NCBI RefSeq assembly: GCF_000025945.1
Contig: NC_006138.1
Coordinates: 3,420,001 to 3,452,000, forward strand
Source: Desulfotalea psychrophila LSv54
GTDB lineage: Bacteria > Desulfobacterota > Desulfobulbia > Desulfobulbales > Desulfocapsaceae
DNA: 32,000 bases
Direction of reading: 5' to 3'
This document shows positions 10,708 through 28,947 of the stretch, piece after piece. The position numbers were made by a program, and so were the translations under genes. Position 1 is the first letter of the stretch. Each line of letters begins with the position of its first letter. The notes beneath the pieces are model-generated. The model was given only the letters and a program-made list of their open reading frames with translations. It did not search any database and was not told the DNA's origin.

Positions 10708-10986
10708 TTATTTTTTCAATCTAATTGGATACACTTCCTCAAGATCCTGATGGGGACGAGGAATAACATGGGCCGCAATAAGCTTGCCCATACGTTTTGC
10801 TGCTGCGGCACCGGCATCAATTGCGGCTTTACACGCGGCAACATCACCACGAATAAGCACACAGACATAACCGCCACCAATACGCTCATAACTCACCAAC
10901 TCTACCTGAGCCGCCTTAGTCATTACGTCTGCTGCATCTACAAGACCGGTTATACCTTTTGCTTCTAATATACCAAGAGCATCCAT
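10708..10986 (-). CDS. eutM: BMC-H hexamer shell protein (PduA/EutM type), copy A
   Basis: 92 aa with PF00936-like features: ALGILEAKG...[12 protein letters not shown]...[21 protein letters not shown]...HVIPRPH. Confidence 0.95.
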   Translation of the reverse strand: MDALGILEAKGITGLVDAADVMTKAAQVELVSYERIGGGYVCVLIRGDVAACKAAIDAGAAAAKRMGKLIAAHVIPRPHQDLEEVYPIRLKK

Positions 10987-11004
10987 TGCTGTTTCCTCTT
11001 CTCT

Positions 11005-11370: not shown

Positions 11371-11415
11371 ACTAACGCTTCCTTTCTTTATTGGTTATAA
11401 CCAGAGGGTCAGCAC

Positions 11416-11973
11416 CTATAATATACTACGCATAACTTCAGGCGTAACGCTTGGAATCACAACAGAACGAACAAGCATTGCAGTCTCGGCACAGGCATCA
11501 GCTGCTGCCTGGGTTGCCATACTTACTGCTGCTACATCACCGGTGAGAAGACAAAAAGCCTTACCACCAAGACCCATGGCAATACGTACCTCGGCAATAT
11601 CTACCTCGGCGGTCTTTGCTGCCCGATCTGCCGCTACAATCGCTGAAGATGCGGAAAAAGTCTCTATTATACCCAGGGAAGGCCCCTGTGGTTTTCCTGC
11701 AATGCCAGACATGGCAGCAATAACGGATCGATCAATACTCGGGATAACAAAATGATCCGCCACGGCACCATCGGCACCGTCAATACCTGCAGCCACGGCA
11801 GCTTGAACCGCTGCCACGTCACCGTGCACAGCTGCAATAAACTTACCTGGACAGATGGTCTTCATCATCAAGATCTCTACGCTAGAGGCCTTCATCATCC
11901 TATCTGCAGCCTCAATACCAGCTGCAATACTACTAAATTCAATCATTCCAACTGATTGTATATAAGTTGTCAT
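11416..11973 (-). CDS. pduT: Tandem-domain BMC-T shell protein, PduT type (Fe-S pore), copy A
   Basis: 185 aa with two BMC domains. The KTICPGKF motif is identical to the Salmonella PduT segment that carries the [4Fe-4S] ligand Cys (C41 here). Confidence 0.9.
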   Translation of the reverse strand: MTTYIQSVGMIEFSSIAAGIEAADRMMKASSVEILMMKTICPGKFIAAVHGDVAAVQAAVAAGIDGADGAVADHFVIPSIDRSVIAAMSGIAGKPQGPSLGIIETFSASSAIVAADRAAKTAEVDIAEVRIAMGLGGKAFCLLTGDVAAVSMATQAAADACAETAMLVRSVVIPSVTPEVMRSIL

Positions 11974-11975
11974 GA

Positions 11976-13319: not shown

Positions 13320-13358
13320 CTCTTTAAGTTCGCTAGAGAGCTACAAAAAAAACGGCTG

Positions 13359-13637
13359 TTACTTGTCACGTTTGAAAGGGAAGACTTCTTCCAAATCACC
13401 ATGTGGACGTGGAATAACGTGCACAGCTACTACCTCGCCAATACGTGCTGCTGCTGCTGCACCTGCATCGGTAGCGGCCTTACATGCTGCCACATCACCA
13501 CGAACAATCGCAGTTACGAGACCAGCACCAATTTGCTTGTAACCTACCAGTTGTACGCGAGCAGCTTTTACCATTGCATCTGAAGCTTCGATGAGTGCGG
13601 TCAAGCCTTTAGTTTCAATCATTCCTAATGAATCCAT
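13359..13637 (-). CDS. BMC-H hexamer shell protein, copy A (first shell gene of the operon)
   Basis: 92 aa, [59 protein letters not shown]...HVIPRPH. Confidence 0.95.
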
Positions 13638-13696
13638 TGTATTCCTCCAAGTTTCGTGTAACGAAAAAAGTTTTACTCTATTTTACCAACATCCGT

Positions 13697-14677
13697 TTAT
13701 AGGCACTGACCTACAACGGCAACCTTATATATATCATCCGCAGTACAACCACGGGAAAGATCATGCCAACCTGCAGCAAAACCCTGAAGAAGCGGGCCAA
13801 GAGCTGTATACCCACCCAAACGCTGAGCGAGCTTATAGCCAATATTACCTGCTTCAAGAGAAGGAAAGATAAGCACATTTGCCATTCCTTCAACTACACT
13901 ACCGGGAGCCTTTTGGGCAGCAACACTTGGGACGATAGCTGCATCGAGTTGTAGCTCACCGTCAACCAACATATCAGGAGCGCGCTTACGAATTTGCTCA
14001 ACGGTATCACGAACAAAAATTGCCCGCTCATGATTGGCGCTACCCTTAGTAGAAAAAGAGAGCATGGCCACCCGAGGTTCTTCACCGAGTAACTTGCGCG
14101 CCTTATCCGCCGATGATATGGCTATATCAGCCAAAGTATTTTCATTGGGCACTGGCACTACACCACAATCGGCAAAGATATAATCTTTTCCGCCTTCCGG
14201 TGCTATCATAAAAAAGAAGCTGGAGATGGTTTTCATACCCTGCTGCTTGGGCAGAAACTGCAAACCTGCACGAATAACATTACCAGTCGAAGATATATTA
14301 CCGGAAACACCCAGATTAACCTCCTCACGACGCACCATCATAGCTGCACCGGCAAGGGGACATCTCATGGCCTTTACGGCATCATCCATGCTCAGCTTTT
14401 TACCCTTTGCCTCACGAATTGCAATAAATTCATTGGCATTTTTTTCAAGCAGAGAGGGACTGGTATGGTCAACCACGGTCACCCCACGACTTGAACATTT
14501 TGCCTCCCGCATCTTAGCGCGAACAGCAAACGGAGAACCCATAAATACTGGATGAGCAAGCCCTTCTGCCTGAAGACGACCAGCCGCCTCAAAAACTCTC
14601 TTATCGAGGCAATCAGGAAAGACAATTGTCTTAGGCGCTTTACGACATACATCTTTACAACGTTCTAATATGCTCAC
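13697..14677 (-). CDS. eutD: Phosphate acetyltransferase (EutD/Pta, PTA_PTB family)
   Basis: 326 aa with IVFPDCLDKRV..AA, GNISSTGNVIRA, FSTKGSA, AGNIGYKLAQRLGG. Present only in module A. Confidence 0.9.
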   Translation of the reverse strand: MSILERCKDVCRKAPKTIVFPDCLDKRVFEAAGRLQAEGLAHPVFMGSPFAVRAKMREAKCSSRGVTVVDHTSPSLLEKNANEFIAIREAKGKKLSMDDAVKAMRCPLAGAAMMVRREEVNLGVSGNISSTGNVIRAGLQFLPKQQGMKTISSFFFMIAPEGGKDYIFADCGVVPVPNENTLADIAISSADKARKLLGEEPRVAMLSFSTKGSANHERAIFVRDTVEQIRKRAPDMLVDGELQLDAAIVPSVAAQKAPGSVVEGMANVLIFPSLEAGNIGYKLAQRLGGYTALGPLLQGFAAGWHDLSRGCTADDIYKVAVVGQCL

Positions 14678-14686
14678 ACTTATCTC

Positions 14687-15511
14687 CTAAGCAACGTTGT
14701 TGATGCACGCAATACGTACAGAAGTGGGAGTACTATAGGTTACATCTACACCTTCGGGGAAATAAACCATATCGCCAACCTTAGCCACCAAGGTTTTTCC
14801 ACAAATATCAAGATGTAACTCACCTGCAACAACAACACCTACCTCTGGACATTCCACGGTACGCTTGAAAGATGCCTTCTCCCACTCCATATAACCACCG
14901 GCAAGTTGAGCGCCAGCACATTCGCCCAGGGCATCGGCAATAAACACCTGTTCTGCTACAGCTACAGGAGCACCGGCATTTGCCTTAAGAAGGCGATCGC
15001 CCTCAACCACACAGATACCACCACAGGAAGAAGAGGCATTCTCTGCTACCAGAGAGACAGAAACATCAGGCTGAGCAAGTCTTTCCGTTACTACCCTACG
15101 CACAAGACTCTCAAGAGCCTCATCGGTCAACACACCCGGAAGGCGCTTTTTCAGGATTTCACAGACTTCAGAAATCAGGACATCGGCCTCGCCTGAGGTG
15201 TTCACTGGAGCAGTTGGAGTAACTATGGCAGGAGCAGCAAAAGCCACTGGCGCTACAGGAGCAGCAGGTTTTACTGGAACAGCTGGGGCCGCCGGAGCAA
15301 CTGGGGCAGCCGGAGCAGGAGTACTGGTAAGAGGACAGGCCTCAACCACAACCTTCTTCTCTTCAACCTGGAGTATTTTCAAACCTAACTCCAAGGCCTT
15401 ATCAACTGCTTGAGGGGTAATAATACACTCTTGAGGCGGGCATAGGATCGACTTCTTCCCACTCTTGAGGGCCCCATTAATATCGGCTTCGGTTATAATC
15501 CGCTTTCCCAT
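14687..15511 (-). CDS. eutQ: EutQ-like cupin protein with Ala/Pro-rich internal linker, copy A
   Basis: 274 aa. The N-terminus MGKRIITEADINGAL...ITPQA resembles Salmonella EutQ (MKKLITANDIR...). Next comes a ~45-aa linker (PAPAAPVAPAAPAVPVKPAAPVAPVAFAAPA...), then a C-terminal cupin (GGYMEWEKASF...GDMVYFPEG). AGGAGG RBS. Confidence 0.85.
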   Translation of the reverse strand: MGKRIITEADINGALKSGKKSILCPPQECIITPQAVDKALELGLKILQVEEKKVVVEACPLTSTPAPAAPVAPAAPAVPVKPAAPVAPVAFAAPAIVTPTAPVNTSGEADVLISEVCEILKKRLPGVLTDEALESLVRRVVTERLAQPDVSVSLVAENASSSCGGICVVEGDRLLKANAGAPVAVAEQVFIADALGECAGAQLAGGYMEWEKASFKRTVECPEVGVVVAGELHLDICGKTLVAKVGDMVYFPEGVDVTYSTPTSVRIACINNVA

Positions 15512-15691: not shown

Positions 15692-15707
15692 AGCAAAATT
15701 CGTGCAA
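15692..15707 (-). promoter_or_regulatory. Sigma-54-like element with a degenerate -24 box, upstream of operon A
   Basis: The minus strand reads TTGCACGAATTTTGCT (GCAC-N5-TTGCT, but TG instead of GG). It lies 181 nt upstream of the eutQ-A ATG. A syntenic counterpart sits 177 nt upstream of eutQ-B. Confidence 0.35.
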
Positions 15708-16048: not shown

Positions 16049-16864
16049 CTAACGTAAATTCAGCGACGCTATGGAAAATGGAGTAAGCATAAGAGGCTGG
16101 GTCGGTAGCTGAATAGGCAACTTCAACTCCTTCTCAAAGACCCCTACAACCCCGGGCAAACAACAGGTACCGCCAGAGAGCAAAATAGTCTCCACCTCCT
16201 GACCCCTTATATGATCTGCCACAATATCAGTCACCCGTTCCAAGGTTGGACGGACAATACTGAGAATATTAAATTCAGCGGCCTTGCGTTTACGCTGCTC
16301 TGCCTCTTCTATAGAGATATCATAGTAACCGGCAATGGTCAGAGAAAGATGCTTACCGCCCGTAGGCTCGTCATCACTAAAAACCACCTGACTATTCCTC
16401 ACCACAGCAGTACCGGTGGTACCACCACCAATATCAACAATGGCGGCCTTATTCAGATCAAGAAGATGAGCAACACAGCTTGGCTCATCCTCTACATAGG
16501 TGACCTCAAGCCCCACAGATTCCAAGATATTTATCGAGAGGCGCGCATCTGTTCCCGGAGGAAAAGATGTCGAGGCTTGGGTGATTTCACAGCCAAGACG
16601 CTCTTCGGCCTGCTTGATAAAGCGACGGACAATATCAATAGCGCCGACATAATCGACAACCACGCCATCACGTACCACCTCTGCCCATTCCAGGAAAACG
16701 GCAACAGGTTCGCCCTCGGCATCAATGGCCATCAAGACAACATCGGCTGTACCTAAATCAATACCAACGTGAATTGGCCCCTCTACTTCAACTGCTTCGG
16801 TATCATTAATCATTGCCGCAGCACGGTCGAGCCTTTCGCAGGCGAGTTCCCATGAAATAGCCAT
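16049..16864 (-). CDS. eutJ: EutJ-like actin/Hsp70-fold ATPase (putative BMC chaperone)
   Basis: Contains VGIDLGTADVVLMA, DGVVVDYVGA, IVDIGGGTTGTAV and LSGGTCCLPG. The start is set at ATG 16864 (MAISWELA...), directly abutting the AldDH-B stop; the track ORF extends to 16942 and overlaps AldDH. Present only in module B. Confidence 0.88.
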   Translation of the reverse strand: MAISWELACERLDRAAAMINDTEAVEVEGPIHVGIDLGTADVVLMAIDAEGEPVAVFLEWAEVVRDGVVVDYVGAIDIVRRFIKQAEERLGCEITQASTSFPPGTDARLSINILESVGLEVTYVEDEPSCVAHLLDLNKAAIVDIGGGTTGTAVVRNSQVVFSDDEPTGGKHLSLTIAGYYDISIEEAEQRKRKAAEFNILSIVRPTLERVTDIVADHIRGQEVETILLSGGTCCLPGVVGVFEKELKLPIQLPTQPLMLTPFSIASLNLR

Positions 16865-16865
16865 A

Positions 16866-18293
16866 CTAGACAATCCTAAAGCTGCCGACAAGGGCACAGC
16901 GACGAAGACGAACAAAGGTCGCTGCGTTAGTAACACCTTCACCGGTTGGAGTGGAGATAGTCATGGAAGTCCAACCTTCACCGCCTGCACCAAGTCCGGC
17001 AATATGGGGACCATTTTTCACAAAGAGACTGGTATTAACGGCCTTGGCCATTCTCTCCATATTGTGAATATTGGTGGAGTGCAGACCAGCGGTATGACTC
17101 AAACCGCGTTCAAGCATAAGAGCCCACTCAAGAGCTTGATCAAAGTTACGGGCACGAACAACAGGAATAAGCGGCATCATCTGCTCGGTTACAGCAAAAG
17201 GATGACGGGCGTCACCTTTTACGTCAACAAAGAGAAGTTTACAACCAGCAGGAATGGTTACTCCGATAAGCTCTGCAAGCTTATAGGCATCACGGCCAAC
17301 CCATTTAGGATTAGCACGACACTTATCGGTACCGTAATCAAGAAGAACGGTCTTACCAATGGCCTCTGCCTGCTCAAGAGAAATTTCAAAGGCACCAGCG
17401 GCGACAAACTCACGCTTAAACTGATCCGCTACAGACTCAACAACAATAATCTCTTTCTCGTTGGCGCAGATGAGGTTGTTATCAAAGGAGGCACCGATAT
17501 AAATACTTTCAGCAGCACGGGCAAGATCCGCTGTCTCATCAACCACAACGGGAGGATTACCAGCACCTGCGGCAATAAGACGCTTATCGGTGACCTTACG
17601 AGCAGCCTTAACAACGGCTTCACCACCGGTTACGGTGAGAAGATTAATTCCCGGATAGGTAAAGAGACGTTGGGCCGCATCAAGAGATGGCTCTTTAATG
17701 CAAACGAGCAGGTTATTAATACCAGTCTCCTCTGCAATAGCCTTATTCATGAGCTTAATAGCCTCTTGAGTGATGCGCTTTGCGGCAGGATGCGGAGCAA
17801 AGACAACTGCATTACCACCTGAGATCATACTGATACCGTTATTAATAACAGTTGATCCAGGATTGGTAGAGGGAGTAACCGAGGCAATAACACCCCAAGG
17901 AGCATTCTCTATAAGGGTAAAGCCATCATCACCGGTAATTGCCGTGGGCTGAAGAATCTCAGGACCCGGAGTGCTGTTGGCCACAAGCAGTGTTTTCAAC
18001 ACCTTATCTTCTATATTGCCCATGCCCGTTTCTGCAACAGCCTTCTCAGCAAGGGGACGTGCATTCATCCGGGCGGCACGACGCATTACCTCAACGACAC
18101 GGGTACGCATAGCAACAGTATCAATAAGCTTGCAAGCCGCCTTAGCTGCCGCAACGGCATCATCCAACTCATCAAAGACACCCCAATCACCTGCTGCCGA
18201 GCCAGACAAAACAGGAGCACCCTGCTGAACATTACCTATTTGAGAAATAACCTCTGCGACAATAGACTCAATTTGTTCGCGGCCAATAGACAT
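16866..18293 (-). CDS. eutE: CoA-acylating aldehyde dehydrogenase (EutE/PduP family) with N-terminal encapsulation peptide, copy B
   Basis: 475 aa. By eye roughly nine in ten residues are identical to copy A. It has the same catalytic motif ICANEKE. The N-terminus is MSIGREQIESIVAEVISQIG. Confidence 0.93.
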   Translation of the reverse strand: MSIGREQIESIVAEVISQIGNVQQGAPVLSGSAAGDWGVFDELDDAVAAAKAACKLIDTVAMRTRVVEVMRRAARMNARPLAEKAVAETGMGNIEDKVLKTLLVANSTPGPEILQPTAITGDDGFTLIENAPWGVIASVTPSTNPGSTVINNGISMISGGNAVVFAPHPAAKRITQEAIKLMNKAIAEETGINNLLVCIKEPSLDAAQRLFTYPGINLLTVTGGEAVVKAARKVTDKRLIAAGAGNPPVVVDETADLARAAESIYIGASFDNNLICANEKEIIVVESVADQFKREFVAAGAFEISLEQAEAIGKTVLLDYGTDKCRANPKWVGRDAYKLAELIGVTIPAGCKLLFVDVKGDARHPFAVTEQMMPLIPVVRARNFDQALEWALMLERGLSHTAGLHSTNIHNMERMAKAVNTSLFVKNGPHIAGLGAGGEGWTSMTISTPTGEGVTNAATFVRLRRCALVGSFRIV

Positions 18294-18314
18294 CTCTTAC
18301 CCCACTCTCTAATT

Positions 18315-18602
18315 TTATTTACTATAAATCACTTCATTCAGAGCACTGATCTGGTCAACAATGGCAACAACGCTCAGGTCAATCGGTGGCTTCCCTCCGC
18401 CCACCACAAGCGCGGCACCACTTCCCCGCACCAGGAGGACATACTCGCCCTCTCCGGCACCGAGAGTATCTGCAGCCACATGTCCCTCGCGTCTTACCAC
18501 ACCATCAGCGCGAATGAAGTCAACAAGAAGCAAGCTTGTATGGGGAACCTTAGGATCACGAATGGTAGCAACTACCTGACCTCTTACTCTTGCCAATTCC
18601 AT
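18315..18602 (-). CDS. eutN: BMC vertex pentamer (EutN/PduN/CcmL family), copy B
   Basis: The start is set at ATG 18602 (MELARVRGQVVATIRDP...), giving 95 aa. By hand alignment about two-thirds of residues are identical to copy A, with a 1-aa indel. Confidence 0.9.
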   Translation of the reverse strand: MELARVRGQVVATIRDPKVPHTSLLLVDFIRADGVVRREGHVAADTLGAGEGEYVLLVRGSGAALVVGGGKPPIDLSVVAIVDQISALNEVIYSK

Positions 18603-18649
18603 ACTCTTTCTCCCCAACCACACATTACTTCACAGACTGCGTGATTTAA

Positions 18650-18928
18650 TTATTTATTCAATTTAATTGGAAAAATTTCCTCAAGGTCCTGATGAGGACG
18701 AGGAATAACATGGGCGGCAATAAGCTTACCCATACGTTTTGCGGCTGCAGCGCCCGCATCTATTGCAGCCTTACAGGCAGCGACATCGCCACGAATAAGC
18801 ACACAGACATAACCACCACCAATACGCTCGTAACTCACCAACTCTACCTGAGCCGCCTTGGTCATAACATCTGCTGCCTCTATAAGGCCGGTAATACCTT
18901 TTGCCTCTAATATTCCAAGAGCATCCAT
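18650..18928 (-). CDS. eutM: BMC-H hexamer shell protein, copy B
   Basis: 92 aa, with 6 differences from 10708-10986 (hand count). Confidence 0.95.
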
Positions 18929-18945
18929 ACTATGTCCTCTGTTTT

Positions 18946-19314
18946 CTATTTTTTGACTGCCTTAGAAGCCAATTCTTTCGCGGGCTTAGCTGCCGCAATA
19001 GCGGCAGCTGCCTTTTCCTCTGCAAAAACAGAACCAATTTTATCGGTCAAAAGAGCTTCAAGGCTTTCATCTGGACGGCCAATAACGTTGGTACCGACAC
19101 ATTCACCCAAGCGAGAGCCAGCTGCCTTACCGGCATCTACGGCTGCGCCAACTGCGGCAAGATCACCCTCACAGATAACGGTTACACCACCTGCTGCATC
19201 CGTGGTTATGGTCTTCACAGACACGCGAGCAGCCTTAGCCATAGCATCAGCAACTTCAATGGCGGCAACCAGACCAACAACTTCAACAAAACCTATAGAA
19301 CCATCCATGCTCAT
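18946..19314 (-). CDS. BMC-H shell protein with Ala/Lys-rich C-terminal extension, copy B
   Basis: 122 aa (or 120 aa from ATG 19308). It has a BMC domain plus the tail [39 protein letters not shown]. Confidence 0.9.
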
Positions 19315-19343
19315 CTTACCTCTTTTAATTGGTTAGCCCGCAC

Positions 19344-19901
19344 CTACAATATACTACTCATAACCTCTGGAGTAACACTTGGAATCACAACAGAACGGAC
19401 AAGCATTGCAGTCTCGGCACAGGCATCAGCTGCTGCCTGGGTTGCCATACTGACTGCAGCCACATCACCGGTGAGAAGACAAAAAGCCTTACCACCAAGA
19501 CCCATGGCAATACGTACTTCGGCAATATCTACCTCGGCAGTCTTCGCGGCACGATCTGCGGCCACAATTGCAGAGGATGCAGAAAAAGTCTCTATAATAC
19601 CAAGAGAACAACCCTGTGGTTTACCGGCAATACCGGACATTGCAGAAATAACGGATTGGTCAATGCTAGGAATTACGAAATGATCCGCTACGGCGCCATC
19701 GGCACCGTCAATACCAGCAGCCACGGAAGCCTGAACCGCAGCCACGTCACCGTGTACCGCTGCAAGAAACTTACCAGGACAGATGGTCTTCATCATCAAA
19801 ATCTCTACACTGGAGGCCTTCATCATACGATCTGCGGCTTCAATACCGGCTGCAATGCTGGTAAATTCTATCATTCCAACTGACTGAATATAAGCTGTCA
19901 T
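19344..19901 (-). CDS. pduT: PduT-type tandem BMC-T shell protein, copy B
   Basis: 185 aa, with 8 differences from copy A (hand count). KTICPGKF is retained, and residues 99-181 are identical. Confidence 0.9.
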   Translation of the reverse strand: MTAYIQSVGMIEFTSIAAGIEAADRMMKASSVEILMMKTICPGKFLAAVHGDVAAVQASVAAGIDGADGAVADHFVIPSIDQSVISAMSGIAGKPQGCSLGIIETFSASSAIVAADRAAKTAEVDIAEVRIAMGLGGKAFCLLTGDVAAVSMATQAAADACAETAMLVRSVVIPSVTPEVMSSIL

Positions 19902-19903
19902 GA

Positions 19904-21247
19904 CTACGCTCCTTTAATCACTACTTCATTACCTACTTCCATTACAGTACCTGCAATAGAGGCATGAATTTTTGCACCCAAGGCTCCCTTAGGCACTGCA
20001 CCAATCAACTGACCCACCTTGACAACATCACCTTTTTTGACCTGAGCCACAGATGGTGCACCGATATGCTGATGAAGCGGAATACGCACCTCAGCAGGAA
20101 TATAATCACCGGTGAAGGCAGGATGAAGATCCATAAAACGATCTATACCAATCTTCAAAGCCAAACGAGGCACTGGCACCTTACGATAAGGGCGCATGTC
20201 TGATTGGGCAGGAATCACTGCTCGAGAGCCCTCGTAAGGAATCCTTTCCTGACGCATTTTTGCTCTAATGGCAGCATTGATACGACGAGGAGAAAGGCCC
20301 ATGGGACAGCTAAACATTTCACAGACGCCACATTCACAACAGAGAAAAGCCTGTTCAAGGCCAGCACCATTCAATCCACCCGCAGCAAAGGCACGCATCA
20401 CCTTATGGGTTTGAAAATCCTGACCTATAAGATAGCGCGGACAAAGATCGGTACAGAGGCGACACTGAATACAGGTACTGGCAGCCTGACGTTCCATGGT
20501 ATGGATATCACGACTGGCCATCACATGCAGATAATGACCTCGGGGCAGAACAATGAGTCCACCGGTGGTCTTAGTCACCATCTTAGTGGCAAAGTCCTCT
20601 TCGGAATCCACCATGCGACCCATCATAGGGCCACCAAGAATGTATATAGGATCGGCGACAGTTGAGCCACCACAATGAGCAAGACACTCGCTCATCTTAG
20701 TTCCCAAAGGCACACGAATAACAGCAGGAGAGCCAACATCACCGGTTACGGTAACAATCTTATGAGTTAAGGGTGTTCCCTTAATGGCTGCAGCTACCTC
20801 AGCCAAAGTGCCCACATTGGCAACAACTGCACCAACATCTTTAGGTAGACCAAGAGGCGGAATGGTCTTTCCAGTTACCTCGTAAACCAAAGCCTGCTCA
20901 TCACCTGCTGGATAAAAGTTATCCAATTGGGCAAGCTCCAGGCCTGTTCCTTCTATACAGTCCGCAAATATTTTTGCTATCTCGGTATACTTACTCTTTA
21001 TACCGATAACACCGCGGGTAGCTCCCGTAACGGAGACGATGGCCTGCATCGCAACAACAATATCCGCTGCACGGGTACGCATAATATGTTGATCAGTATG
21101 CAACAGTGGCTCACACTCACAACCGTTGGCTATAACTGTATCCACCTGCGTGTCATATTTAACATGGGCGGGAAAACCTGCTCCGCCCTCGCCCACAATA
21201 CCGGCATCCAGTATCGAGCGAAGAAGACTATCTTTATTCATGATCAT
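19904..21247 (-). CDS. pduS: PduS/RnfC-like flavin and Fe-S oxidoreductase, copy B
   Basis: 447 aa. The first 84 residues are identical to copy A, and divergence rises toward the C-terminus. Both 4Fe-4S motifs are retained. Confidence 0.9.
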   Translation of the reverse strand: MIMNKDSLLRSILDAGIVGEGGAGFPAHVKYDTQVDTVIANGCECEPLLHTDQHIMRTRAADIVVAMQAIVSVTGATRGVIGIKSKYTEIAKIFADCIEGTGLELAQLDNFYPAGDEQALVYEVTGKTIPPLGLPKDVGAVVANVGTLAEVAAAIKGTPLTHKIVTVTGDVGSPAVIRVPLGTKMSECLAHCGGSTVADPIYILGGPMMGRMVDSEEDFATKMVTKTTGGLIVLPRGHYLHVMASRDIHTMERQAASTCIQCRLCTDLCPRYLIGQDFQTHKVMRAFAAGGLNGAGLEQAFLCCECGVCEMFSCPMGLSPRRINAAIRAKMRQERIPYEGSRAVIPAQSDMRPYRKVPVPRLALKIGIDRFMDLHPAFTGDYIPAEVRIPLHQHIGAPSVAQVKKGDVVKVGQLIGAVPKGALGAKIHASIAGTVMEVGNEVVIKGA

Positions 21248-21286
21248 CTCTTTGGGGTCGCTAGAGAGCTACAAAAAAAACGGCTA

Positions 21287-21565
21287 CTATTTGTCACGTT
21301 TGAAGGGAAATACTTCTTCCAGGTCACCATGTGGACGTGGAATAACGTGTACAGCTACCACCTCGCCAATACGTGCGGCTGCTGCTGCACCTGCATCGGT
21401 TGCTGCTTTACATGCTGCAACATCACCACGAACAATCGCAGTTACCAAACCAGCACCAATTTGTTTGTAACCTACAAGTTGTACACGAGCAGCCTTTACC
21501 ATTGCATCTGAAGCTTCAATAAGTGCGATCAAGCCCTTAGTTTCAATCATTCCTAATGAATCCAT
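21287..21565 (-). CDS. BMC-H hexamer shell protein, copy B
   Basis: 92 aa. It has one amino-acid difference (T13I) from 13359-13637 despite about two dozen nucleotide differences (hand count). Confidence 0.95.
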
Positions 21566-21623
21566 TGTATTTCTCCAAGTTTCGTATAACGAAAAAGTTT
21601 TACTCTATTTTGCTACCATCCAT

Positions 21624-21668
21624 TTATAGGCACTGACCTACAACGGCAATTTTCTATACCATCCGCAT
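21624..21668 (-). pseudogene. Remnant of the 3' end of pta/eutD in module B
   Basis: ttataggcactgacctacaacggcaa is identical over 26 nt to the last codons plus stop of pta-A (13697-13722). A further ~20 nt are similar with a 1-nt indel, and homology is then lost. No pta ORF is present in module B. Confidence 0.8.
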
Positions 21669-21759
21669 CCTGGAGCCGCTCAAGGGGAGGAGACACCCTA
21701 GAGCACAAAAGAGGCTCAATACAGGCACGGATCGTCTACTATAACAACATTCGCTTTGA

Positions 21760-22440
21760 TTACTCTGCAGGCTTATTAACGCAGGCTATACGCACAGAGG
21801 TAGGAGTACTGCAAATCACTTCGACAGCCTTAGGGAAATAAACCATATCACCTGCCTCGGCCACCATTTTTTTACCGTCAACCTCAAGATGAAGGGTACC
21901 TGCTACCACCACCGCCACCTCAGGTGATTTTAGCGTACGGGTAAAAGATCCCTTTTCCCATTGCATATGACCGCCAACAAGAGAGGTACCTGCAGTCAAC
22001 TCTTTAACAGCCAAAGAAGCACCATCATTTTCTCTGACAAGACGATCTTCCTCAATGAGAGAGACACCAGCACAAGAGGCAACCACGCCTTCCACTGGAG
22101 ATTGAACAACAACTGGTTCGGCAAGCTTGGCCGTAACAACACGACGAACAAGAGACTCTAAGGCATCTGCTGCCGGGGCTCCCGCCACAGATTCCTGAAT
22201 AATGCCACACACCTCAGCAATAAGGGTGTCCGTTGCGGAAGATCCACGCACAGGGACATAAGAACAGTTCTCCTGAGCTACAAGTCCTGGAGCCTCAAAA
22301 AGTATTTCAACCCCCTGTGCCTGCGCCATTTCAACTGCCTGCTGAGTGACAATGCATTCCTGGGGCGGACATAGGATTGATTTATGACAACCTTGGAGAA
22401 CCTTTTCAATATCGGCCTCGCTTATAATCCGCTTTCCCAT
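21760..22440 (-). CDS. eutQ: EutQ-like cupin protein, copy B (lacks the Ala/Pro linker)
   Basis: 226 aa. N-terminus is MGKRIISEADIEKVL...CPPQECIVTQQA, with the cupin GGHMQWEKGSF...GDMVYFPKA. It is the most diverged paralog pair in the two modules. Confidence 0.85.
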   Translation of the reverse strand: MGKRIISEADIEKVLQGCHKSILCPPQECIVTQQAVEMAQAQGVEILFEAPGLVAQENCSYVPVRGSSATDTLIAEVCGIIQESVAGAPAADALESLVRRVVTAKLAEPVVVQSPVEGVVASCAGVSLIEEDRLVRENDGASLAVKELTAGTSLVGGHMQWEKGSFTRTLKSPEVAVVVAGTLHLEVDGKKMVAEAGDMVYFPKAVEVICSTPTSVRIACVNKPAE

Positions 22441-22616
22441 GCAATCTCCCTTAATATATACAAAACACCTGCTCCCCTCTCTAGGAAAGAGAACAAAAAA
22501 CCATCTTATTTTCCATCTATCGCACTAAGTCTCTATTTTTTCAAACATATGCCAAGAAAAAAGATCCTGTCCTGGCCAGTCTCCCATATAGAGAAGAAAA
22601 AGATTCCCTTTTTTCT

Positions 22617-22632
22617 AGCAATTATCGTGCTA
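22617..22632 (-). promoter_or_regulatory. Sigma-54-like element with a degenerate -24 box, upstream of operon B
   Basis: The minus strand reads TAGCACGATAATTGCT (GCAC-N5-TTGCT). It lies 177 nt upstream of the eutQ-B ATG and is syntenic with 15692-15707. Confidence 0.35.
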
Positions 22633-22785
22633 GAAGCCACTTTTTTCCCCTTTTTATAAAAATTCAAAAAGCAAGAGCCTATTTTAAAAGGATTTAGAAA
22701 CAAAAAGACGGACTCGACAACAAGGAAAAAGCAGATTCCAGCAAAAGAATGTTTTAACAGATTACAAGGACAAAAAAAGACATTT

Positions 22786-22801
22786 GTTGCATTTCTGCAC
22801 A
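22786..22801 (+). promoter_or_regulatory. GTTGC-N6-GCAC motif copy
   Basis: GTTGCATTTCTGCACA. It is followed by AAGAGCCA...GGCCC, which resembles a decayed copy of the operon terminators. Confidence 0.45.
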
Positions 22802-22890
22802 AGAGCCAGACATTCACAAGGCCCCTTTTTTTCTAGCAAAGATACTCTCTCCACCAATTAACAATCCTTACACATATAGAGAAACCAACC

Positions 22891-22906
22891 GTTGCTTTTT
22901 TGCACA
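22891..22906 (+). promoter_or_regulatory. GTTGC-N6-GCAC motif copy
   Basis: GTTGCTTTTTTGCACA, read directly. Confidence 0.45.
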
Positions 22907-22969
22907 AAGCAGAGTAAGCATAGTAACCTACTGTTTACTCACTGTTTAAGCAAGGAGGCAAATTTTACC

Positions 22970-22985
22970 GAGGCATTTTTGCACC
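22970..22985 (+). promoter_or_regulatory. Degenerate motif copy (GAGGC-N6-GCAC)
   Basis: GAGGCATTTTTGCACC. The left half-site is imperfect. Confidence 0.3.
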
Positions 22986-23175
22986 AAAACAGCAAGAGCC
23001 AAGCGACAGAGGTCACAATAAAAATAAAATTTTAAAATCTTCCAAGCCCCTTAACAGAAAAAACCACCTATATATATTAAATACCCCAAATCCTCCTCCT
23101 AAAAAGTCGGCCATAAGCATCCGCTGCACCCTCTTTTTCTTGTTTTTTTGGGGAAAATCTTTTTTTTTAACAATT

Positions 23176-23191
23176 TGGCACTGTCTTTGCT
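23176..23191 (+). promoter_or_regulatory. Canonical sigma-54 (-24/-12) promoter for the amidohydrolase-fold gene
   Basis: TGGCACTGTCTTTGCT (TGGCAC-N5-TTGC, GG-N10-GC). The -12 element lies ~130 nt upstream of ATG 23322. Confidence 0.7.
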
Positions 23192-23321
23192 GAGAATATT
23201 CAGCAAGTTTTAAGGTTATTTTTTCTTCCACTTGTCTGTAGAGATGAATTTTAACTGATATTTCGGCGTAAAACATTATTTACGCCTTCATTATACATGA
23301 TAAACCATAAGAGGATTCGCA

Positions 23322-24281
23322 ATGAACGTGATTGACTTTCGGTTTCGCCCTAACACCCCTGAAATTTTGGATGGCATTCAACACAGCACCATGTTCAAGG
23401 GTTTGTGCAAGCATATTGATTTTTCCAAAATGAAACCGCAGACAGTTGCTGAGTGTGTTCAGGATCTTACTGCACATAATGTTGTACGTGCGGTTATCAC
23501 AGGTCGTGACTGCGAGACCACCTACAACGGATCTAAGCACAACAACCAAAGCATCATGAATTGGATTCAGCAGTTTCCTGAAAAATTCATCGGCTTCTTT
23601 GGAATGGATCCTCACAAGGGTATGAAAGGCATTGCCTCACTCGTTACCGCTGTAGAGACCTACGGCATGCGCGGTGCTGCCATCGATCCTTACCTTGCTC
23701 AGCTTTACCCAAATGACGCAAAATATTACCCAATCTACAGCAAGTGTTGCGAGCTTAACATCCCTATCGTTTTCACCACTGGTCCTGCTACTCTGGTACC
23801 AGGCGCTGTAATTGATCACGTTGCTCCACGTTATATTGACTTTGTTGCCCGTGACTTCCCAGATCTCAAGATTGTTATCAGCCACGGCGGATACCCTTGG
23901 GTTAACGAGGCAATCGTCGTTACCGAGCGTAATGCCAACGTATACCTTGATATCTCTGAGTTCGAGGCATCTCCAATGTCTGAGGCTTACGTTCAAGCAG
24001 CAAACAGCATGATTGCTGACAAGCTTCTCTACGCAAGTGCTCACCCATTCATTGATTTCCGTGATGCACTCGCAACCTACAACGGACTTCCAATTTCCGA
24101 CGAAGCTCGTCAGAAAATCATGCACGATAATGCTGCTAAGCTTCTCGGCATTGAGACCGTTGCACCTGTTGCTGCTCCTGTTGCTGCTCCTGCATACAAT
24201 GCAAGTAGCAACAACGCTACCAGCACCGCAGACTTAGTTCGAAGCATCGTAGCAGAGGTTGTTGCCCGTCAAAACGGTTAA
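23322..24281 (+). CDS. Amidohydrolase_2-like TIM-barrel protein (COG2159-like), lacking the HxH motif, with a C-terminal linker plus encapsulation-peptide-like helix
   Basis: 319 aa. It starts VIDFRFRP where the family normally has IDxHxH. It also has VISHGGYPW, a YASAHPF segment and MHDNAAKLLGI, typical of the family C-terminus. The tail is VAPVAAPVAAPAYNASSNNATS + TADLVRSIVAEVVARQNG. AAGAGGA RBS. A terminator follows. Confidence 0.8.
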   Translation: MNVIDFRFRPNTPEILDGIQHSTMFKGLCKHIDFSKMKPQTVAECVQDLTAHNVVRAVITGRDCETTYNGSKHNNQSIMNWIQQFPEKFIGFFGMDPHKGMKGIASLVTAVETYGMRGAAIDPYLAQLYPNDAKYYPIYSKCCELNIPIVFTTGPATLVPGAVIDHVAPRYIDFVARDFPDLKIVISHGGYPWVNEAIVVTERNANVYLDISEFEASPMSEAYVQAANSMIADKLLYASAHPFIDFRDALATYNGLPISDEARQKIMHDNAAKLLGIETVAPVAAPVAAPAYNASSNNATSTADLVRSIVAEVVARQNG

Positions 24282-24838: not shown

Positions 24839-25651
24839 ATGCAAGTCATCGCTTGTATTAAGCAGGTACCTGATACAACTCAGGTAAAAATTGACCCAGT
24901 GACCAATACCCTCGTTCGTGAAGGTATTCCCTTTATCGTCAATCCCTATGACACCCATGCTCTTGAGGCCGCACTGGATCTCAAAGATAAGTATGGGGTT
25001 AGCGTGACCGTGGTCACCATGGGCCCACCGAATTCGGCAAACGCCCTGAAGAAGGCCCTGGCCATGGGAGCTGATCGTGCCATTCTCTTGTCCGATCGCG
25101 CCTTTGGTGGTGCCGACACCCTGGCCACCAGTAAGGTTATCACAGCAGCTCTTGCCAAACTACAGGGAGAGGAAGAAATCGGCCTCATCTTCTGTGGTAA
25201 GCAGACCATTGACGGCGACACAGCTCAGGTAGGACCCGGCATTGCATCTCGAATGAAAATCCCTCAACTCACCTTGGTTGATAACGTAGAAGAGTTCACT
25301 CCTGCAAGCAAAAAAATCCGCGTGCGCAGAAAGCTTGAAGGACGCTACGAAAGAGTTGAATCAAAAATGCCTGCCCTGGTCACCGTTGTTCGCGAGATCA
25401 ACAGCCCACGCTACCCCACCGTTCCTACCCGCCTCAAGTCGTTTAATGCCCCAATTGAAACCTGGGATAACAGCGACCTTAAAATCGACCCTGAAACCAT
25501 CGGTCTCAAAGGCTCTGCCACCTGGGTAAGCAAGATTTTCAGCCCAGAGAGAGAGAAGGGAGAAATTGTAGGAGATGGAATCAATGCTCCACAAGAGGCA
25601 GCTGCACAGCTTATCGATAAACTTTTGAGCAAAGATGTGCTCTCGTTCTAG
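24839..25651 (+). CDS. etfB: Electron transfer flavoprotein beta subunit
   Basis: 270 aa. MQVIACIKQVPDTTQVKIDP..., NPYDTHALEAAL and CGKQTIDGDTAQVGP are typical of EtfB/FixA. Confidence 0.93.
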   Translation: MQVIACIKQVPDTTQVKIDPVTNTLVREGIPFIVNPYDTHALEAALDLKDKYGVSVTVVTMGPPNSANALKKALAMGADRAILLSDRAFGGADTLATSKVITAALAKLQGEEEIGLIFCGKQTIDGDTAQVGPGIASRMKIPQLTLVDNVEEFTPASKKIRVRRKLEGRYERVESKMPALVTVVREINSPRYPTVPTRLKSFNAPIETWDNSDLKIDPETIGLKGSATWVSKIFSPEREKGEIVGDGINAPQEAAAQLIDKLLSKDVLSF

Positions 25652-25662
25652 AGGAAAAAGTT

Positions 25663-26973
25663 ATGACAAAGAAAGTAAAGCGACCAAGAGGTAAAGCTCA
25701 ACTCCTTGAGGGAAAATGTATCAGCTGTGGTGGACGCTGCGAAAGCTCGTGTCCCGTTGCATGTATCACCATGAGCGATGCTGGCGAGCCACAAATTAAT
25801 ACAGCAAAGTGCATAGGCTGTAAAAAATGTGTCAAGGCCTGTCCCGGAGAAGCACTCGAGATATTCTTCACCCCTGAAGAACTTGCCATCCTGAAAGAAC
25901 TCGGAGCTGATACCACGGTAGTAGAACCCACTCCGGAAGAGAAGGCTATTGCCGAGCGTAACGCTCAGTATAAAAACGTATGGGTTCTTGTCGAGCAAAC
26001 CGAAGGCATAGTCGCCGAGGTCTCTTGGGAGCTTCTTGGCGAAGGACGAAAGCTTGCCAATAAACGCGGCTCTGAAGTTTGTGCCCTTATTATTGGTGCT
26101 GGCGTTCGTAATATCTGCGCTGACGCCTTTCACTATGGCGCCGATAAGTGCTACCTCATCGACAACCCTGTTTTTAAAGAGTACCGCACCGAGCCCTATT
26201 TCCGTGCCTGTTGCGACATGATTCATAAGCATAAGCCAGAAATCGTTCTCATGGGAGCCACCGGCCTTGGTCGCGATCTGGCCGGAGCGGTTGCCACAGA
26301 GCTACAAACCGGGCTTACCGCCGACTGTACCGAACTGGACATCGATCCAAAGGGTAATCTGATGCAGACCCGCCCAGCCTTTGGCGGCAACATCATGGCA
26401 ACCATTATGTGCGACAAGTTTCGTCCACAGATGTCCACTGTTCGCCCCAAGGTTATGCAACTTGCCCCGATATCAGAAAACCCCAAATCTGAAATCATCG
26501 AAGAGACGGTTGATATCCCTGCCACAAGCATCATGACCAAAGTTCTTGAGATTATTCGCGAGAAAAAAGGTAGCAGCGATATCGATATCTCCAGCACAGA
26601 ATTTATCGTAGCTGGTGGTCGTGGCATGATGAGCAAGGAAAATTTTTCCATCCTCAACGAACTCGCCGATGAACTTGGTGCTGTAGTTGCTGGATCACGA
26701 ATGGCTGTCGATGCGGGTTGGGTTTCCCACACCAGACAAGTTGGTCAAACGGGCAAAACAGTTCGACCTGTTGTTTATATCGCCGTCGGTATTTCAGGCG
26801 CTATTCAACACATGGTTGGTATGCAAGACTCTGATATGATCATTGCCGTCAACAAAGATAAGGATGCACCAATCTTTGAAGTAGCAAACTACGGTATCGT
26901 CGGCGACCTCTTTGAGGTGGTTCCGGCTATGACCAAAAAGATTCGCGAGGCCAAGGCCTCTGCACAACACTAA
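25663..26973 (+). CDS. etfA: Electron transfer flavoprotein alpha subunit with N-terminal 2x[4Fe-4S] ferredoxin domain
   Basis: 436 aa. CISCGGRCESSCP and CIGCKKCVKACP are followed by an EtfA/FixB body (IVAGGRGM, SRMAVDAGW, VGQTGKTVRP..YIAVGISGAIQH). Confidence 0.92.
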   Translation: MTKKVKRPRGKAQLLEGKCISCGGRCESSCPVACITMSDAGEPQINTAKCIGCKKCVKACPGEALEIFFTPEELAILKELGADTTVVEPTPEEKAIAERNAQYKNVWVLVEQTEGIVAEVSWELLGEGRKLANKRGSEVCALIIGAGVRNICADAFHYGADKCYLIDNPVFKEYRTEPYFRACCDMIHKHKPEIVLMGATGLGRDLAGAVATELQTGLTADCTELDIDPKGNLMQTRPAFGGNIMATIMCDKFRPQMSTVRPKVMQLAPISENPKSEIIEETVDIPATSIMTKVLEIIREKKGSSDIDISSTEFIVAGGRGMMSKENFSILNELADELGAVVAGSRMAVDAGWVSHTRQVGQTGKTVRPVVYIAVGISGAIQHMVGMQDSDMIIAVNKDKDAPIFEVANYGIVGDLFEVVPAMTKKIREAKASAQH

Positions 26974-26997
26974 TCATTTTGGAAGGATTTACAGATT

Positions 26998-28947
26998 ATG
27001 CATATTAGCCCAATGATATTCACCCCAATACTGATCGCCTCTCTGCTTCTTTTTGCCTACGGCCTACGGTCACGTCTTAAACTGGCAGCCATGGGTAAGG
27101 CTGAAGATCGATCTGATATGATGGCACAACGAATAGCCATGATGTTCAACATAGCCTTCTTGCAAAAGAAAGTGCTAGGTGGCAGTTTCGGCCTGAATCA
27201 CTTTTTCATCTTTTGGACCTTTATTCTCCTCGCCCTCGCCAATGGTGAGTTTTTGGTAGCTGGCGTTTTTCCCGCTCTCACCTTCAAAGCACTTCCTCAG
27301 GGAATCTTCTCTCCACTGATGTTCGTCTTTGATGTTGTTTCTACCATCTGCCTTATCGCAATTGCTTCGGGAATTATCCGCCGCATCATCGCCCCACCAT
27401 ACAAAGAGGCTCGTACCGCTGAGGCCTTTGGCATTCTCGCCGTTATCGGTGGCCTAATGCTTGCCTACTTCGGCGTCCATGCAGCAGAGCTTGCCCTTGG
27501 TGAAATCAAGGCATCAATGCCTGTTTCCGGCGCTATCGCCTCTATGCTCAGCAATATGGCACCAGCTTCCATTGCCAGCTTTGGCCAGACAGCATGGTGG
27601 ATTCACGCCTTTCTTATCCTAGGCCTGATGAACTACCTGCCCTTTGGCAAGCACATGCACATCATCACCGCCATCCCCAACTGTCTTTTCGGGGCAATCG
27701 ACAAGGTTAACACTGTACCCCGTGAAGAATTTGCTGAGAATAACAGCTATGGCGTACAGGAAGCAAATGACTTCACCTGGAAAGACATTATCGACTCTTT
27801 CACCTGTACCGAGTGTGGCCGTTGCCAGAAGGTATGTCCTGCCACCCTCACCGACAAAGAGTTGGTACCACGTACCCTTATTGAGCAGATCAAGTACAAT
27901 TTGATCGCCAATCAAGCAGAGCTCAAGGCCGGCAAGCCTGTCTCCTACAACCTTATTGGCGACGGCGAAAAGAGCATCAGCAAAGAGGCTATCTGGTCTT
28001 GCCTTACCTGTGGGGCATGCATGCAACAGTGCCCTGTTCTTATTGAGCATGTGCCCAAGATTATCAAGATGCGTCGTCACCTGGTTCAGATGGAGTCCGA
28101 TTTCCCTGAAGAACTGTTAAGCCTTTTCGAAAACATGGAGCAACGTAGCAATCCATGGGGCATGGCACCATCTGATCGTAGTAAATGGGTTGGTGAGCTT
28201 GAAGTGCCAATGTTTGACGAATCCAAAGAGTATCTCTTCTATGTTGGTTGCTCCGGATCCTTCGATGCTCGAGCTCGTCAGGTAACAACCTCCATGGTCA
28301 AAATCCTCAATGCAGCTGGAATCTCCTACGGCATCCTCGGCAAAGATGAGCTCTGCTGTGGAGACAGTGTCCGTCGACTCGGTAACGAGTATGTCTTTGA
28401 TCAAATGGCACAGCAAAACACTGACCTCTTCAAGAAGCTTGGAGTTAAAAAGATCATCACCGCCTGTCCACACTGTTTTACCACCGTCCTCAACGACTAT
28501 AAGCAGTATGGCCTGGAGATCGAAGTTACTCACCACACCACCTTCATCAACAAGCTCATTGCTGAGAAGAAGCTTGCCCTGAATAACACAGAGATGAAAG
28601 GCAAGAATATTGTCTACCATGACTCCTGTTATCTCGGTCGCCACAATGGTATCTACGACGCTCCACGAAACGTCATCACCAGCATCACCCAAAAAGCTCC
28701 AATTGAAATGGAGAAGAACCGTGAGAACGCATTCTGCTGTGGTGCAGGTGGCGGTCGCATGTGGCTTGAAGAACGTACCGAAAAGCGAGTAAATGTTGAA
28801 CGTACCAAACAGGCCCTTGAGACCAATGCTGATTGTATCACCGTTGGCTGTCCATTCTGCCTGACTATGTTTGAAGATGGTGCCAAGGATCTTGGCGCCG
28901 AGGTTCCTGTAAAGGATATTGCCGAGGTAGTTGCCGCAGCACTGTAA
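26998..28947 (+). CDS. Membrane-anchored Fe-S oxidoreductase (HdrD/DsrK-like CCG domains fused to a polytopic His-rich membrane domain); Etf-associated quinone oxidoreductase type
   Basis: 649 aa. The N-terminal ~230 aa are hydrophobic, with several predicted TM helices and conserved His. Ferredoxin motifs are CTECGRCQKVCP and CLTCGACMQQCP. There are two CCG-type Cys-rich regions (CCGDS...CPHCF and CCGAGGG...CPFC). It is co-directional with and 24 nt downstream of etfA. Confidence 0.85.
   Translation: MHISPMIFTPILIASLLLFAYGLRSRLKLAAMGKAEDRSDMMAQRIAMMFNIAFLQKKVLGGSFGLNHFFIFWTFILLALANGEFLVAGVFPALTFKALPQGIFSPLMFVFDVVSTICLIAIASGIIRRIIAPPYKEARTAEAFGILAVIGGLMLAYFGVHAAELALGEIKASMPVSGAIASMLSNMAPASIASFGQTAWWIHAFLILGLMNYLPFGKHMHIITAIPNCLFGAIDKVNTVPREEFAENNSYGVQEANDFTWKDIIDSFTCTECGRCQKVCPATLTDKELVPRTLIEQIKYNLIANQAELKAGKPVSYNLIGDGEKSISKEAIWSCLTCGACMQQCPVLIEHVPKIIKMRRHLVQMESDFPEELLSLFENMEQRSNPWGMAPSDRSKWVGELEVPMFDESKEYLFYVGCSGSFDARARQVTTSMVKILNAAGISYGILGKDELCCGDSVRRLGNEYVFDQMAQQNTDLFKKLGVKKIITACPHCFTTVLNDYKQYGLEIEVTHHTTFINKLIAEKKLALNNTEMKGKNIVYHDSCYLGRHNGIYDAPRNVITSITQKAPIEMEKNRENAFCCGAGGGRMWLEERTEKRVNVERTKQALETNADCITVGCPFCLTMFEDGAKDLGAEVPVKDIAEVVAAAL

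Follow-up and report, generated by a model that had tools for sequence, protein, structure and literature searches.

In the gut and in marine sediments, a main source of sulfite, and through it of H2S, is the desulfonation of isethionate and 2,3-dihydroxypropane-1-sulfonate (DHPS) by glycyl radical enzymes (GREs). Besides the lyase and its activase, the published pathways name no more than a transporter and generic enzymes of aldehyde metabolism. A stretch of 32,000 nucleotides from Desulfotalea psychrophila LSv54 (contig NC_006138.1, positions 3,420,001 to 3,452,000 of the forward strand), referred to below as the window, raises the question of whether one more protein belongs to this chemistry. 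Near a GRE gene and two modules of microcompartment genes (A and B), it carries a gene for an amidohydrolase-fold protein with a C-terminal tail. An initial annotation, made from the letters of the window, had proposed that this protein is encapsulated and is the candidate cargo or signature enzyme of a second, undescribed metabolosome. The reading favoured here, with a probability of about 0.7, is that this metal-site-less PF04909 barrel is a conserved companion of the C-S-cleaving GREs (IslA/IseG, HpsG) and is recruited through its tail into a microcompartment of the GRMguf type. In positions of the window, the gene is laid out as follows:

23322-24281, + strand: whole gene, a 319-residue protein of the Amidohydro_2 fold with a C-terminal linker and helix (open reading frame (ORF), translation, Pfam, AlphaFold2 (AF2))
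23322-24152, + strand: TIM-barrel domain, residues 1-277 (AF2, Foldseek, alignment, end point of tail-less orthologues)
24153-24224, + strand: flexible linker, residues 278-301, ETVAPVAAPVAAPAYNASSNNATS (low predicted local distance difference test score (pLDDT), unconserved in homologues)
24225-24275, + strand: predicted encapsulation-peptide helix, residues 302-318, TADLVRSIVAEVVARQN (AF2, conserved core, likeness to the aldehyde dehydrogenase (AldDH) and EutC peptides)

The ORF and the sub-coordinates first assigned to its tail were exact on re-translation, nucleotides 24159-24224 encoding VAPVAAPVAAPAYNASSNNATS and nucleotides 24225-24272 encoding TADLVRSIVAEVVARQ. The Pfam profile PF04909 (Amidohydro_2) matched residues 34-277 with E = 6.7e-39 and 134.8 bits, against a gathering cut-off of 26.4, and no NCBIfam family matched the 319-residue protein. 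In the AF2 model, built from an alignment of 60 homologues, the mean pLDDT was 93.2 and the barrel ran to residue 276; the linker (residues 278-301) had block-mean pLDDT values of 51-65, dropping below 50 at residues 293-297, and the terminal helix (residues 302-318) was predicted at a pLDDT of about 85. The barrel fold and the terminal helix expected by the initial annotation are both present in the predicted structure. Top Foldseek matches to the model were all PF04909-type barrels, and the nearest solved structure, by sequence as well as by fold, is 3IRS (BB4693 of Bordetella), which is tail-less and uncharacterised. Orthologues without a tail, 61-92% identical, are complete at about residue 277; the tail is therefore dispensable for the barrel.

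The helix resembles the targeting peptide of the AldDH encoded in each module. As had been noted at the outset, its hexapeptide SIVAEV is identical in AldDH-B (MSIGREQIESIVAEVISQI) and reads SIVSEV in AldDH-A. The shared 6-mer alone is weak evidence, since 227 of 2000 composition-preserving shuffles match some 6-mer in the other 27 window proteins. The underlying pattern, in contrast, is not a product of chance. A strict form of the motif occurs only three times in the 8,739 residues of the 28 window proteins, at the C-terminus of the amidohydrolase and at the N-termini of the two AldDHs:

18234-18284, - strand: N-terminal encapsulation peptide of AldDH-B, GREQIESIVAEVISQIG (motif)
10292-10342, - strand: N-terminal encapsulation peptide of AldDH-A, GQAQIESIVSEVLAQLS (motif)

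Nearly all of the best 120 database homologues (Desulfobacterota, 65-96% identical) have 301-323 residues, and they end in a linker followed by D-L-V-x-D-I-V-R-E-V-M-A-R-L; relatives of less than 50% identity have about 275-285 residues and no tail. Of 115 tailed homologues, 110 keep the helix core L-V-x-D-I-V-R-E-V-M-A-R-L almost unchanged. Across these 110 tails the V, I-V and V positions are invariant or nearly so, and the linker, 12-32 residues long with a median of 18, is rich in Ala, Gly, Ser and Pro and unconserved. In every Desulfobacterota locus one pattern, phi-x-x-I-V-x-E-V-phi-x-x-L, is common to the N-terminus of AldDH, (E)DIESIVSEVLKKL, and the C-terminus of the amidohydrolase, QDLVSEIVREVMARL. 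Two other locus architectures have the AldDH peptide at the C-terminus and a PduL peptide at the N-terminus, and there the amidohydrolase tail resembles both. The C-terminal AldDH peptide, with PduL standing in for Pta, was seen in the Firmicutes- and Desulfosediminicola-type isethionate loci L070, L071 and L073, so the same cargo set uses swapped termini across shell lineages. EutC1-19 is said to have been validated as an Eut-compartment targeting peptide by Choudhary and colleagues in 2012. Seven of ten residues are identical between the tail consensus core, IVREVMARLG, and IVRSVMASMG of EutC1-19, the latter taken from the tag sequence in PMC5405515.

Some copies end in other ways. A non-helical C-terminal extension closing in ...(F/A)PLPFQPF(A/M)P(M)GR was found in the metagenome locus L126 and in P0007 and P0350, one of them in a locus with shell genes, and may be another kind of interaction motif. 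The tail in locus L152 differs again (...EDKLRSLVASILQSSLK), with no shell genes in view.

Two independent surveys bear on how the tail is distributed relative to shell genes. The first was a protein-centred scan with one genome per species (66 loci), in which the window proteins were searched and C-termini were read. The second was a metagenome scan with the window GRE as query (80 loci, 33 of which have at least 5 kb on both sides); its counts refer to complete amidohydrolase copies tallied by hand from the locus table. Genes for Pta, EutQ, EutJ or PduS at the edge of the available locus DNA were scored as microcompartment-edge genes. When 101 complete orthologues were pooled, shell or microcompartment-edge genes stood beside 59 of the 63 tailed copies, against 0 of the 38 tail-less ones; apart from the remaining 4 tailed copies, the tail is not carried away from shell loci, and the encapsulation proposed at the outset agrees with this. 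The tailed copies of the first survey had shell genes within 10 kb in 38 cases and edge genes in 8, with 1 (locus L005) lacking both, and none of its 14 tail-less copies had shell genes. Among the 16 tailed copies of the second, 9 had shell genes, 4 had edge genes and 3 had none in view; shell genes accompanied none of the 24 tail-less copies. Tail-less copies of the first survey came from Maridesulfovibrio, Desulforhopalus, Desulfopila, Desulfobacterium, Mailhella and a Peptococcaceae metagenome-assembled genome, in loci that hold a GRE, its activase, a tripartite ATP-independent periplasmic (TRAP) transporter, a TauE sulfite exporter and a PAS-sigma54 activator.

Gene order gives the same picture at the level of single loci. 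In Desulfobacterota the gene almost always adjoins a single module, EutQ-Pta-H-PduS-T-H-H-EutN-AldDH-EutJ, together with an IslA/HpsG-class GRE and activase. A third architecture, AldDH-H-H-PduL-EutN-PduS-T in Desulfosediminicola, likewise comes with a tailed copy. Three Desulfosporosinus-type loci (L072, L073 and L074) have the same synteny of activase, GRE, major facilitator superfamily transporter and sigma-54 activator, a divergently oriented amidohydrolase gene, and barrels that are 89-92% identical. In L073 the tailed gene is followed by a full EutN-PduS-T-EutQ-H-H-H-AldDH-PduL operon, and in L074 by EutJ and EutN up to the contig end, both tails reading ...QSIIEGVIKELASKGM; in L072 the shell operon is absent and the protein ends 7 residues into the linker. 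Comparative genomics strongly supports the tail as a putative encapsulation peptide, and in every comparative test available it appears to behave as one.

The lyase that this protein accompanies lies on the opposite strand of the window:

6028-8514, - strand: glycyl radical sulfonate C-S lyase of the IslA/IseG type (Pfam, NCBIfam, Protein Data Bank (PDB) sequence comparison)
4979-6001, - strand: GRE activase (NCBIfam)

The GRE scored 1361 bits to IseG (5YMR) and 1357 to IslA (7KQ3), higher than the 1176 to HpsG (6LON), and is therefore of the isethionate sulfite-lyase type. The NCBIfam label HpsG, (2S)-3-sulfopropanediol dehydratase, was rejected on the basis of this PDB comparison; the label probably arose because NCBIfam returned only HpsG/HpfG models and none named IslA or IseG. 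Association of the amidohydrolase with this enzyme class was frequent in the second survey, where 25 of the 33 GRE loci flanked by 5 kb or more on each side contained the gene. It extends to the DHPS enzymes: in gut Desulfovibrionaceae, HpsG-type clusters also hold orthologues, without a tail. On one Bilophila-like contig (L078) two tail-less paralogues, at 4230-5108 and 10001-10834 of that contig, flank hpsGH; accessible descriptions of the four-gene DHPS cluster make no mention of two such paralogues. Orthologues also adjoin TauE sulfite exporters and PAS-sigma54 activators, and the smallest islands consist only of a transporter, GRE, activase, regulator and the amidohydrolase gene.

Shared control points to the same partnership. 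The window was searched for the sigma-54-type element TGGCAC-N5-TTGC, and sites within one mismatch numbered 5, compared with 1.65 expected; four of them are placed as follows:

23176-23191, + strand: sigma-54-type -24/-12 element TGGCACTGTCTTTGCT, a perfect match, 130 bp upstream of the amidohydrolase start codon
8585-8600, - strand: sigma-54-type element upstream of the GRE gene, a perfect match
22617-22632, - strand: sigma-54-type element upstream of module B, one mismatch
15692-15707, - strand: sigma-54-type element upstream of module A, one mismatch, the twin of that of module B

A third perfect consensus, at 8794-8809 (+ strand) in the AldDH-A/GRE intergenic region, faces away from the GRE gene and is antisense to AldDH-A. 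The divergent intergenic region of 880 bp between module B and the amidohydrolase gene (22441-23321) has 36% GC, versus 47% for the window, and holds sigma-54-like elements in both orientations without any Rfam match; around the amidohydrolase gene neither an Rfam family nor a clear terminator was found. Of 61 loci, 34 have an equivalent element upstream of the orthologue, at a distance of 60-240 bp. These observations agree with the regulon of the sigma-54 activator DVU2827, in which the amidohydrolase gene DVU2820 and the operon DVU2822-2825 have been placed (Kazakov 2015). The GRE was regarded there as a pyruvate formate-lyase, so the association of the two genes was on record before the function of the GRE was known. 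The GRE of D. vulgaris was later characterised as IseG (UniProt Q727N1) (Xing 2019), and by locus tag it would correspond to DVU2824.

The barrel itself has lost the metal site of its family. The protein was aligned with 122 remote relatives from a 50%-identity representative library. Where these relatives read IDxHxHP, the window protein has R7 and R9 (IDFRFRP), and A240 stands in the Asp column of strand 8 (S-D-[YFW]-P), in line with the HxH-less and Asp-less barrel first read from the translation. Neither the HxH of strand 1 nor the Asp of strand 8 is present, and of the metal ligands only H188 (strand 6) is kept. H241 of the local ASAHP sequence is unconserved, being Ala in gut orthologues and with Tyr commonest in its column among the remote relatives; it is therefore not a substitute ligand. 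The invariant residues of the barrel are D5, G91, H188, P192 and R203, and R7, R9, D96, D132, Y136 and E196 are nearly invariant, a pattern that holds down to about 30% identity. The constancy of D5, H188 and R203, and of the six near-invariant residues, suggests that the barrel is catalytic, and it may bind an anion through the arginines that stand in for the metal ligands.

Taken as a pathway component, the protein would exist in two forms. Where the pathway runs free in the cytoplasm it would have about 277 residues and end at the barrel, and where the pathway runs in an isethionate microcompartment the same protein would carry two further parts, a variable linker of some 18 residues and then a helix of some 16 with the AldDH/PduL peptide signature. 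The helix would dock on the lumenal face of the shell, on an AldDH-nucleated cargo core, or on both, and the enzyme would be packaged together with IslA, AldDH and Pta. Its transcription would start from a sigma-54 promoter of its own, like that of the GRE gene and of the shell operons. The replacement of His by Arg and of Asp by Ala, together with the association with sulfite-releasing GREs, leads to the tentative idea that the ligand of the protein is an anion, sulfonate or sulfite, and that its role is to deal with a side-product peculiar to this chemistry. The protein was not noted in accessible papers on other types of glycyl radical enzyme-associated microcompartment (GRM), which is an impression from the literature and not the result of a survey. 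Bisulfite adds spontaneously to acetaldehyde, giving 1-hydroxyethanesulfonate. As a leading but low-confidence guess, the protein may speed the breakdown of this adduct, or it may deal with sulfite in some other way. A more specific suggestion, which we think rather unlikely, is that the protein is an overlooked, metal-free third catalytic component of all GRE desulfonation pathways, with an alpha-hydroxyalkanesulfonate lyase that frees sulfite and the carbonyl compound from the bisulfite adduct as the leading candidate. In that event the new C-terminal peptide would draw the enzyme into the shell, where both products would be concentrated and the adduct would form.

How the protein relates to modules A and B bears on whether it belongs to a second metabolosome:

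16049-22440, - strand: module B, consisting of EutQ-like, BMC-H, PduS-like, BMC-T, two BMC-H, EutN, AldDH-B and EutJ
8924-15511, - strand: module A, consisting of EutQ-like, Pta, BMC-H, PduS-like, BMC-T, two BMC-H, EutN and AldDH-A

AldDH, Pta, PduS-like and EutQ-like genes were assigned by Pfam and NCBIfam, and shell genes by translation and tblastn to the BMC and EutN_CcmL genes annotated by Pfam in related loci. Some facts favour a chemically distinct metabolosome built from module B with this protein as its cargo or signature enzyme: the gene adjoins module B, the hexapeptide is exact in AldDH-B and one residue off in AldDH-A, and the window holds no signature enzyme proper to module B. 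However, the two modules are 83.8% identical in DNA over 4.7 kb and share their gene order, with protein identities of 83-99% for BMC-H, 96% for BMC-T and 88% for AldDH; Pta is retained only in module A and EutJ only after module B. This near-identity, the shared order and the single copies of Pta and EutJ indicate a tandem duplication of one locus. No such duplication was seen in the 66 related genome loci, and in genomes with one module, those of the closest relatives (Halodesulfovibrio) among them, the same tailed gene occupies the same place; tail-less orthologues accompany both IslA/IseG- and HpsG-type GREs that have no compartment. The idea that the protein defines the chemistry of module B is therefore not supported, and a second metabolosome is very improbable. 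What stands of the initial annotation is the encapsulation, for which the co-occurrence of tail and shell and the likeness to AldDH, PduL and EutC peptides argue; the shell paralogues of the two modules are 83-99% identical, so that a preference for one shell cannot be told from sequence.

The other explanations concern what the barrel and the tail do. The family name, the amidohydrolase-superfamily taurine-conjugate hydrolases of Bilophila and the frequent adjacency to transporter genes would fit a metal-dependent hydrolase acting upstream, to free the GRE substrate from a conjugate such as N-acetyltaurine, other taurine conjugates or isethionate esters. Against this, each of the three canonical metal ligands examined is replaced, the minimal islands contain only a transporter, GRE, activase and regulator besides this gene, isethionate and DHPS are imported unmodified by TRAP systems, and an upstream step needs no shell, so that we give this possibility very little weight. 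Identity with the metallo-bile-salt hydrolases of Bilophila was considered in its own right and rejected, as those enzymes are secreted and metal-dependent. Loss of the metal site would also be compatible with a non-catalytic remnant that serves the GRE pathway as a scaffold, chaperone or sulfite-binding carrier, as would the absence of an NCBIfam functional family and of any characterisation of 3IRS. This is quite unlikely given that D5, H188 and R203 are invariant and six more residues nearly so, which is typical of a preserved active site, and that LigI is a metal-independent catalytic member of the amidohydrolase superfamily. The tail, finally, might be a helix for protein-protein contacts or oligomerisation, with IslA, AldDH or PduS as a direct partner, or a membrane-binding amphipathic helix, instead of a shell-targeting peptide. 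Encapsulation peptides can work by cargo-cargo association, and for this reason binding to the shell and binding to cargo look alike in the comparative data; the pLDDT of the helix could reflect packing, and its hydrophobic moment does not exceed that of shuffles. Nevertheless, the tail is lost with the shell operon even where GRE and activase stay, which argues against a GRE-binding role independent of the compartment, there is no membrane context, and the motif equals that of the cognate AldDH/PduL and of the EutC peptides; on balance such a helix is unlikely.

Several observations weigh against the protein being a regular, tail-recruited companion of these lyases. The gene is missing from 8 of the 33 GRE loci mentioned above, 3 of them with shell genes, so it is a frequent and perhaps not an obligatory partner. 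Four tailed copies (L005, L136, L145 and L152) have no shell genes in the available DNA, of which L005 retains the activase and a truncated EutQ-like ORF and therefore resembles a decayed locus. In neighbor-joining trees of the barrel the helical tails are all confined to a single large clade, which also contains nested tail-less members; they trace to one gain and at least two losses, which are few independent events. The pLDDT of about 85 in the modelled helix could reflect packing or docking onto the barrel. The Eisenberg hydrophobic moment of the window helix is 0.23, not above shuffles, and its amphipathicity would rest on the hydrophobic pattern i, i+1, i+4, i+5, i+8, i+9, i+12. Published proteomics of purified B. 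wadsworthia compartments do not mention the amidohydrolase.

Other features of the window were recorded alongside. Between modules A and B, EutN (62%) and the EutQ-like protein (45%) are far more diverged than BMC-H and BMC-T (83-99%). Both EutQ-like proteins (14687-15511 and 21760-22440, - strand) have an unassigned N-terminal domain of about 50 residues, MGKRII[TS]EADI..., followed by a linker and helices like encapsulation peptides (ADVLISEVCEILKKRL, LESLVRRVVTERL) before the cupin domain, copy A with an additional Pro/Ala-rich insertion of about 48 residues; this domain alone persists as a 133-residue ORF in the decayed locus L005. Read from its GTG at 16942, the longest EutJ ORF shares 77 nt (16866-16942) with the 3' end of AldDH-B, and the true start is probably further downstream. 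Directly after the amidohydrolase gene, 24839-28947 holds an operon of EtfB, a ferredoxin-fused EtfA and a 649-residue membrane protein with two CCG domains and 4Fe-4S motifs, similar to HdrD/DsrK. Such genes stood beside the orthologue in 0 of 66 genome loci, and Etf/HdrD-type neighbours in 2 of 80 metagenome loci (EtfAB after the orthologue in L136, an HdrD-like gene after the GRE in L110); a functional link as a general feature was rejected on these counts, and the operon may be an electron outlet for the pathway. Upstream of the activase, 835-4696 encodes a YcaO-domain protein (550 residues), a pseudouridine synthase of the RluA family and a radical SAM protein whose viperin-like match is weak; all three appear unrelated to the sulfonate locus.

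For sulfonate respiration, these results mean that one further protein accompanies the lyases across Desulfobacterota and Firmicutes and shares their sigma-54 control, its putative targeting tail having come, and in some lineages gone again, together with the protein shell. It is a candidate new cargo of the isethionate microcompartment and its tail a candidate natural C-terminal tag, and the barrel stands out as a clearly delimited candidate for a protective function or for a step still missing from the pathway.

As judged from its gene content and peptide motifs, the locus is of the GRMguf, or isethionate microcompartment, type. GUF loci were reportedly defined by Zarzycki and colleagues in 2015, who are said to have predicted peptides within them. 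GRMguf loci have been linked to isethionate (Xing 2019; Burrichter 2021), and the type GRM4 was rejected, as it denotes the PDU-like 1,2-propanediol loci. The isethionate microcompartment of B. wadsworthia has the same IslA/IseG-type GRE and activase, acylating AldDH, Pta, EutQ-like and PduS-like proteins and BMC-H/T/P shell proteins, and the window differs from it in the tandem duplication of the shell/AldDH module. A 'hypothetical protein, predicted amidohydrolase' (HMPREF0179_00649) closes the table of the B. wadsworthia IslAB cluster and is not discussed there (Burrichter 2021). DVU2820 of D. vulgaris Hildenborough is also an amidohydrolase-family gene with its own sigma-54 promoter, beside a TRAP-IseG-IseH operon, but that locus has no microcompartment, and by the tail/shell pattern the protein should be tail-less.

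Among solved structures, BB4693 of Bordetella bronchiseptica (3IRS/3K4W) aligns over residues 2-276 with E = 6e-31 and a TM score of 0.81 on the target, and it shares the IDFRxRP start in place of HxH; it is, however, only 28% identical to the window protein and has no tail. A literature search on 3IRS/BB4693 found no functional information, and we know of no link of BB4693 to sulfonates or GREs. The LigJ hydratase, gamma-resorcylate and LigW decarboxylases, LigY and LigI share the (beta/alpha)8 barrel, but at 13-20% identity, and no aromatic-acid pathway lies near the window gene; remote PF04909 relatives have HxH and the strand-8 Asp where the window protein has R7/R9 and A240. BUF/xanthine-type loci likewise hold amidohydrolase-superfamily genes inside microcompartment loci (Axen 2014; Ravcheev 2019), but these loci lack AldDH, and their amidohydrolases are predicted purine ring-opening or carbamoyl hydrolases unrelated to this family and to GREs.

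In the literature searched, outside which the Zarzycki 2015 peptide predictions lie, no targeting peptide or function was found for this protein. Its tail resembles EutC1-19 (MDQKQIEEIVRSVMASMGQ), PduP1-18 and PduD1-20 in its terminal position, in a helix some 16-18 residues long that a poorly conserved linker joins to the protein, and in hydrophobic pairs four apart. It differs from them in being C-terminal and in sitting on an amidohydrolase fold, for which the literature searched yielded no peptide of this kind. The locus type, the encapsulation-peptide concept and the presence of the gene near IseG/IslA were already known; what appears to be new is the recognition of an RxR amidohydrolase subfamily as a conserved, tail-switching candidate cargo.

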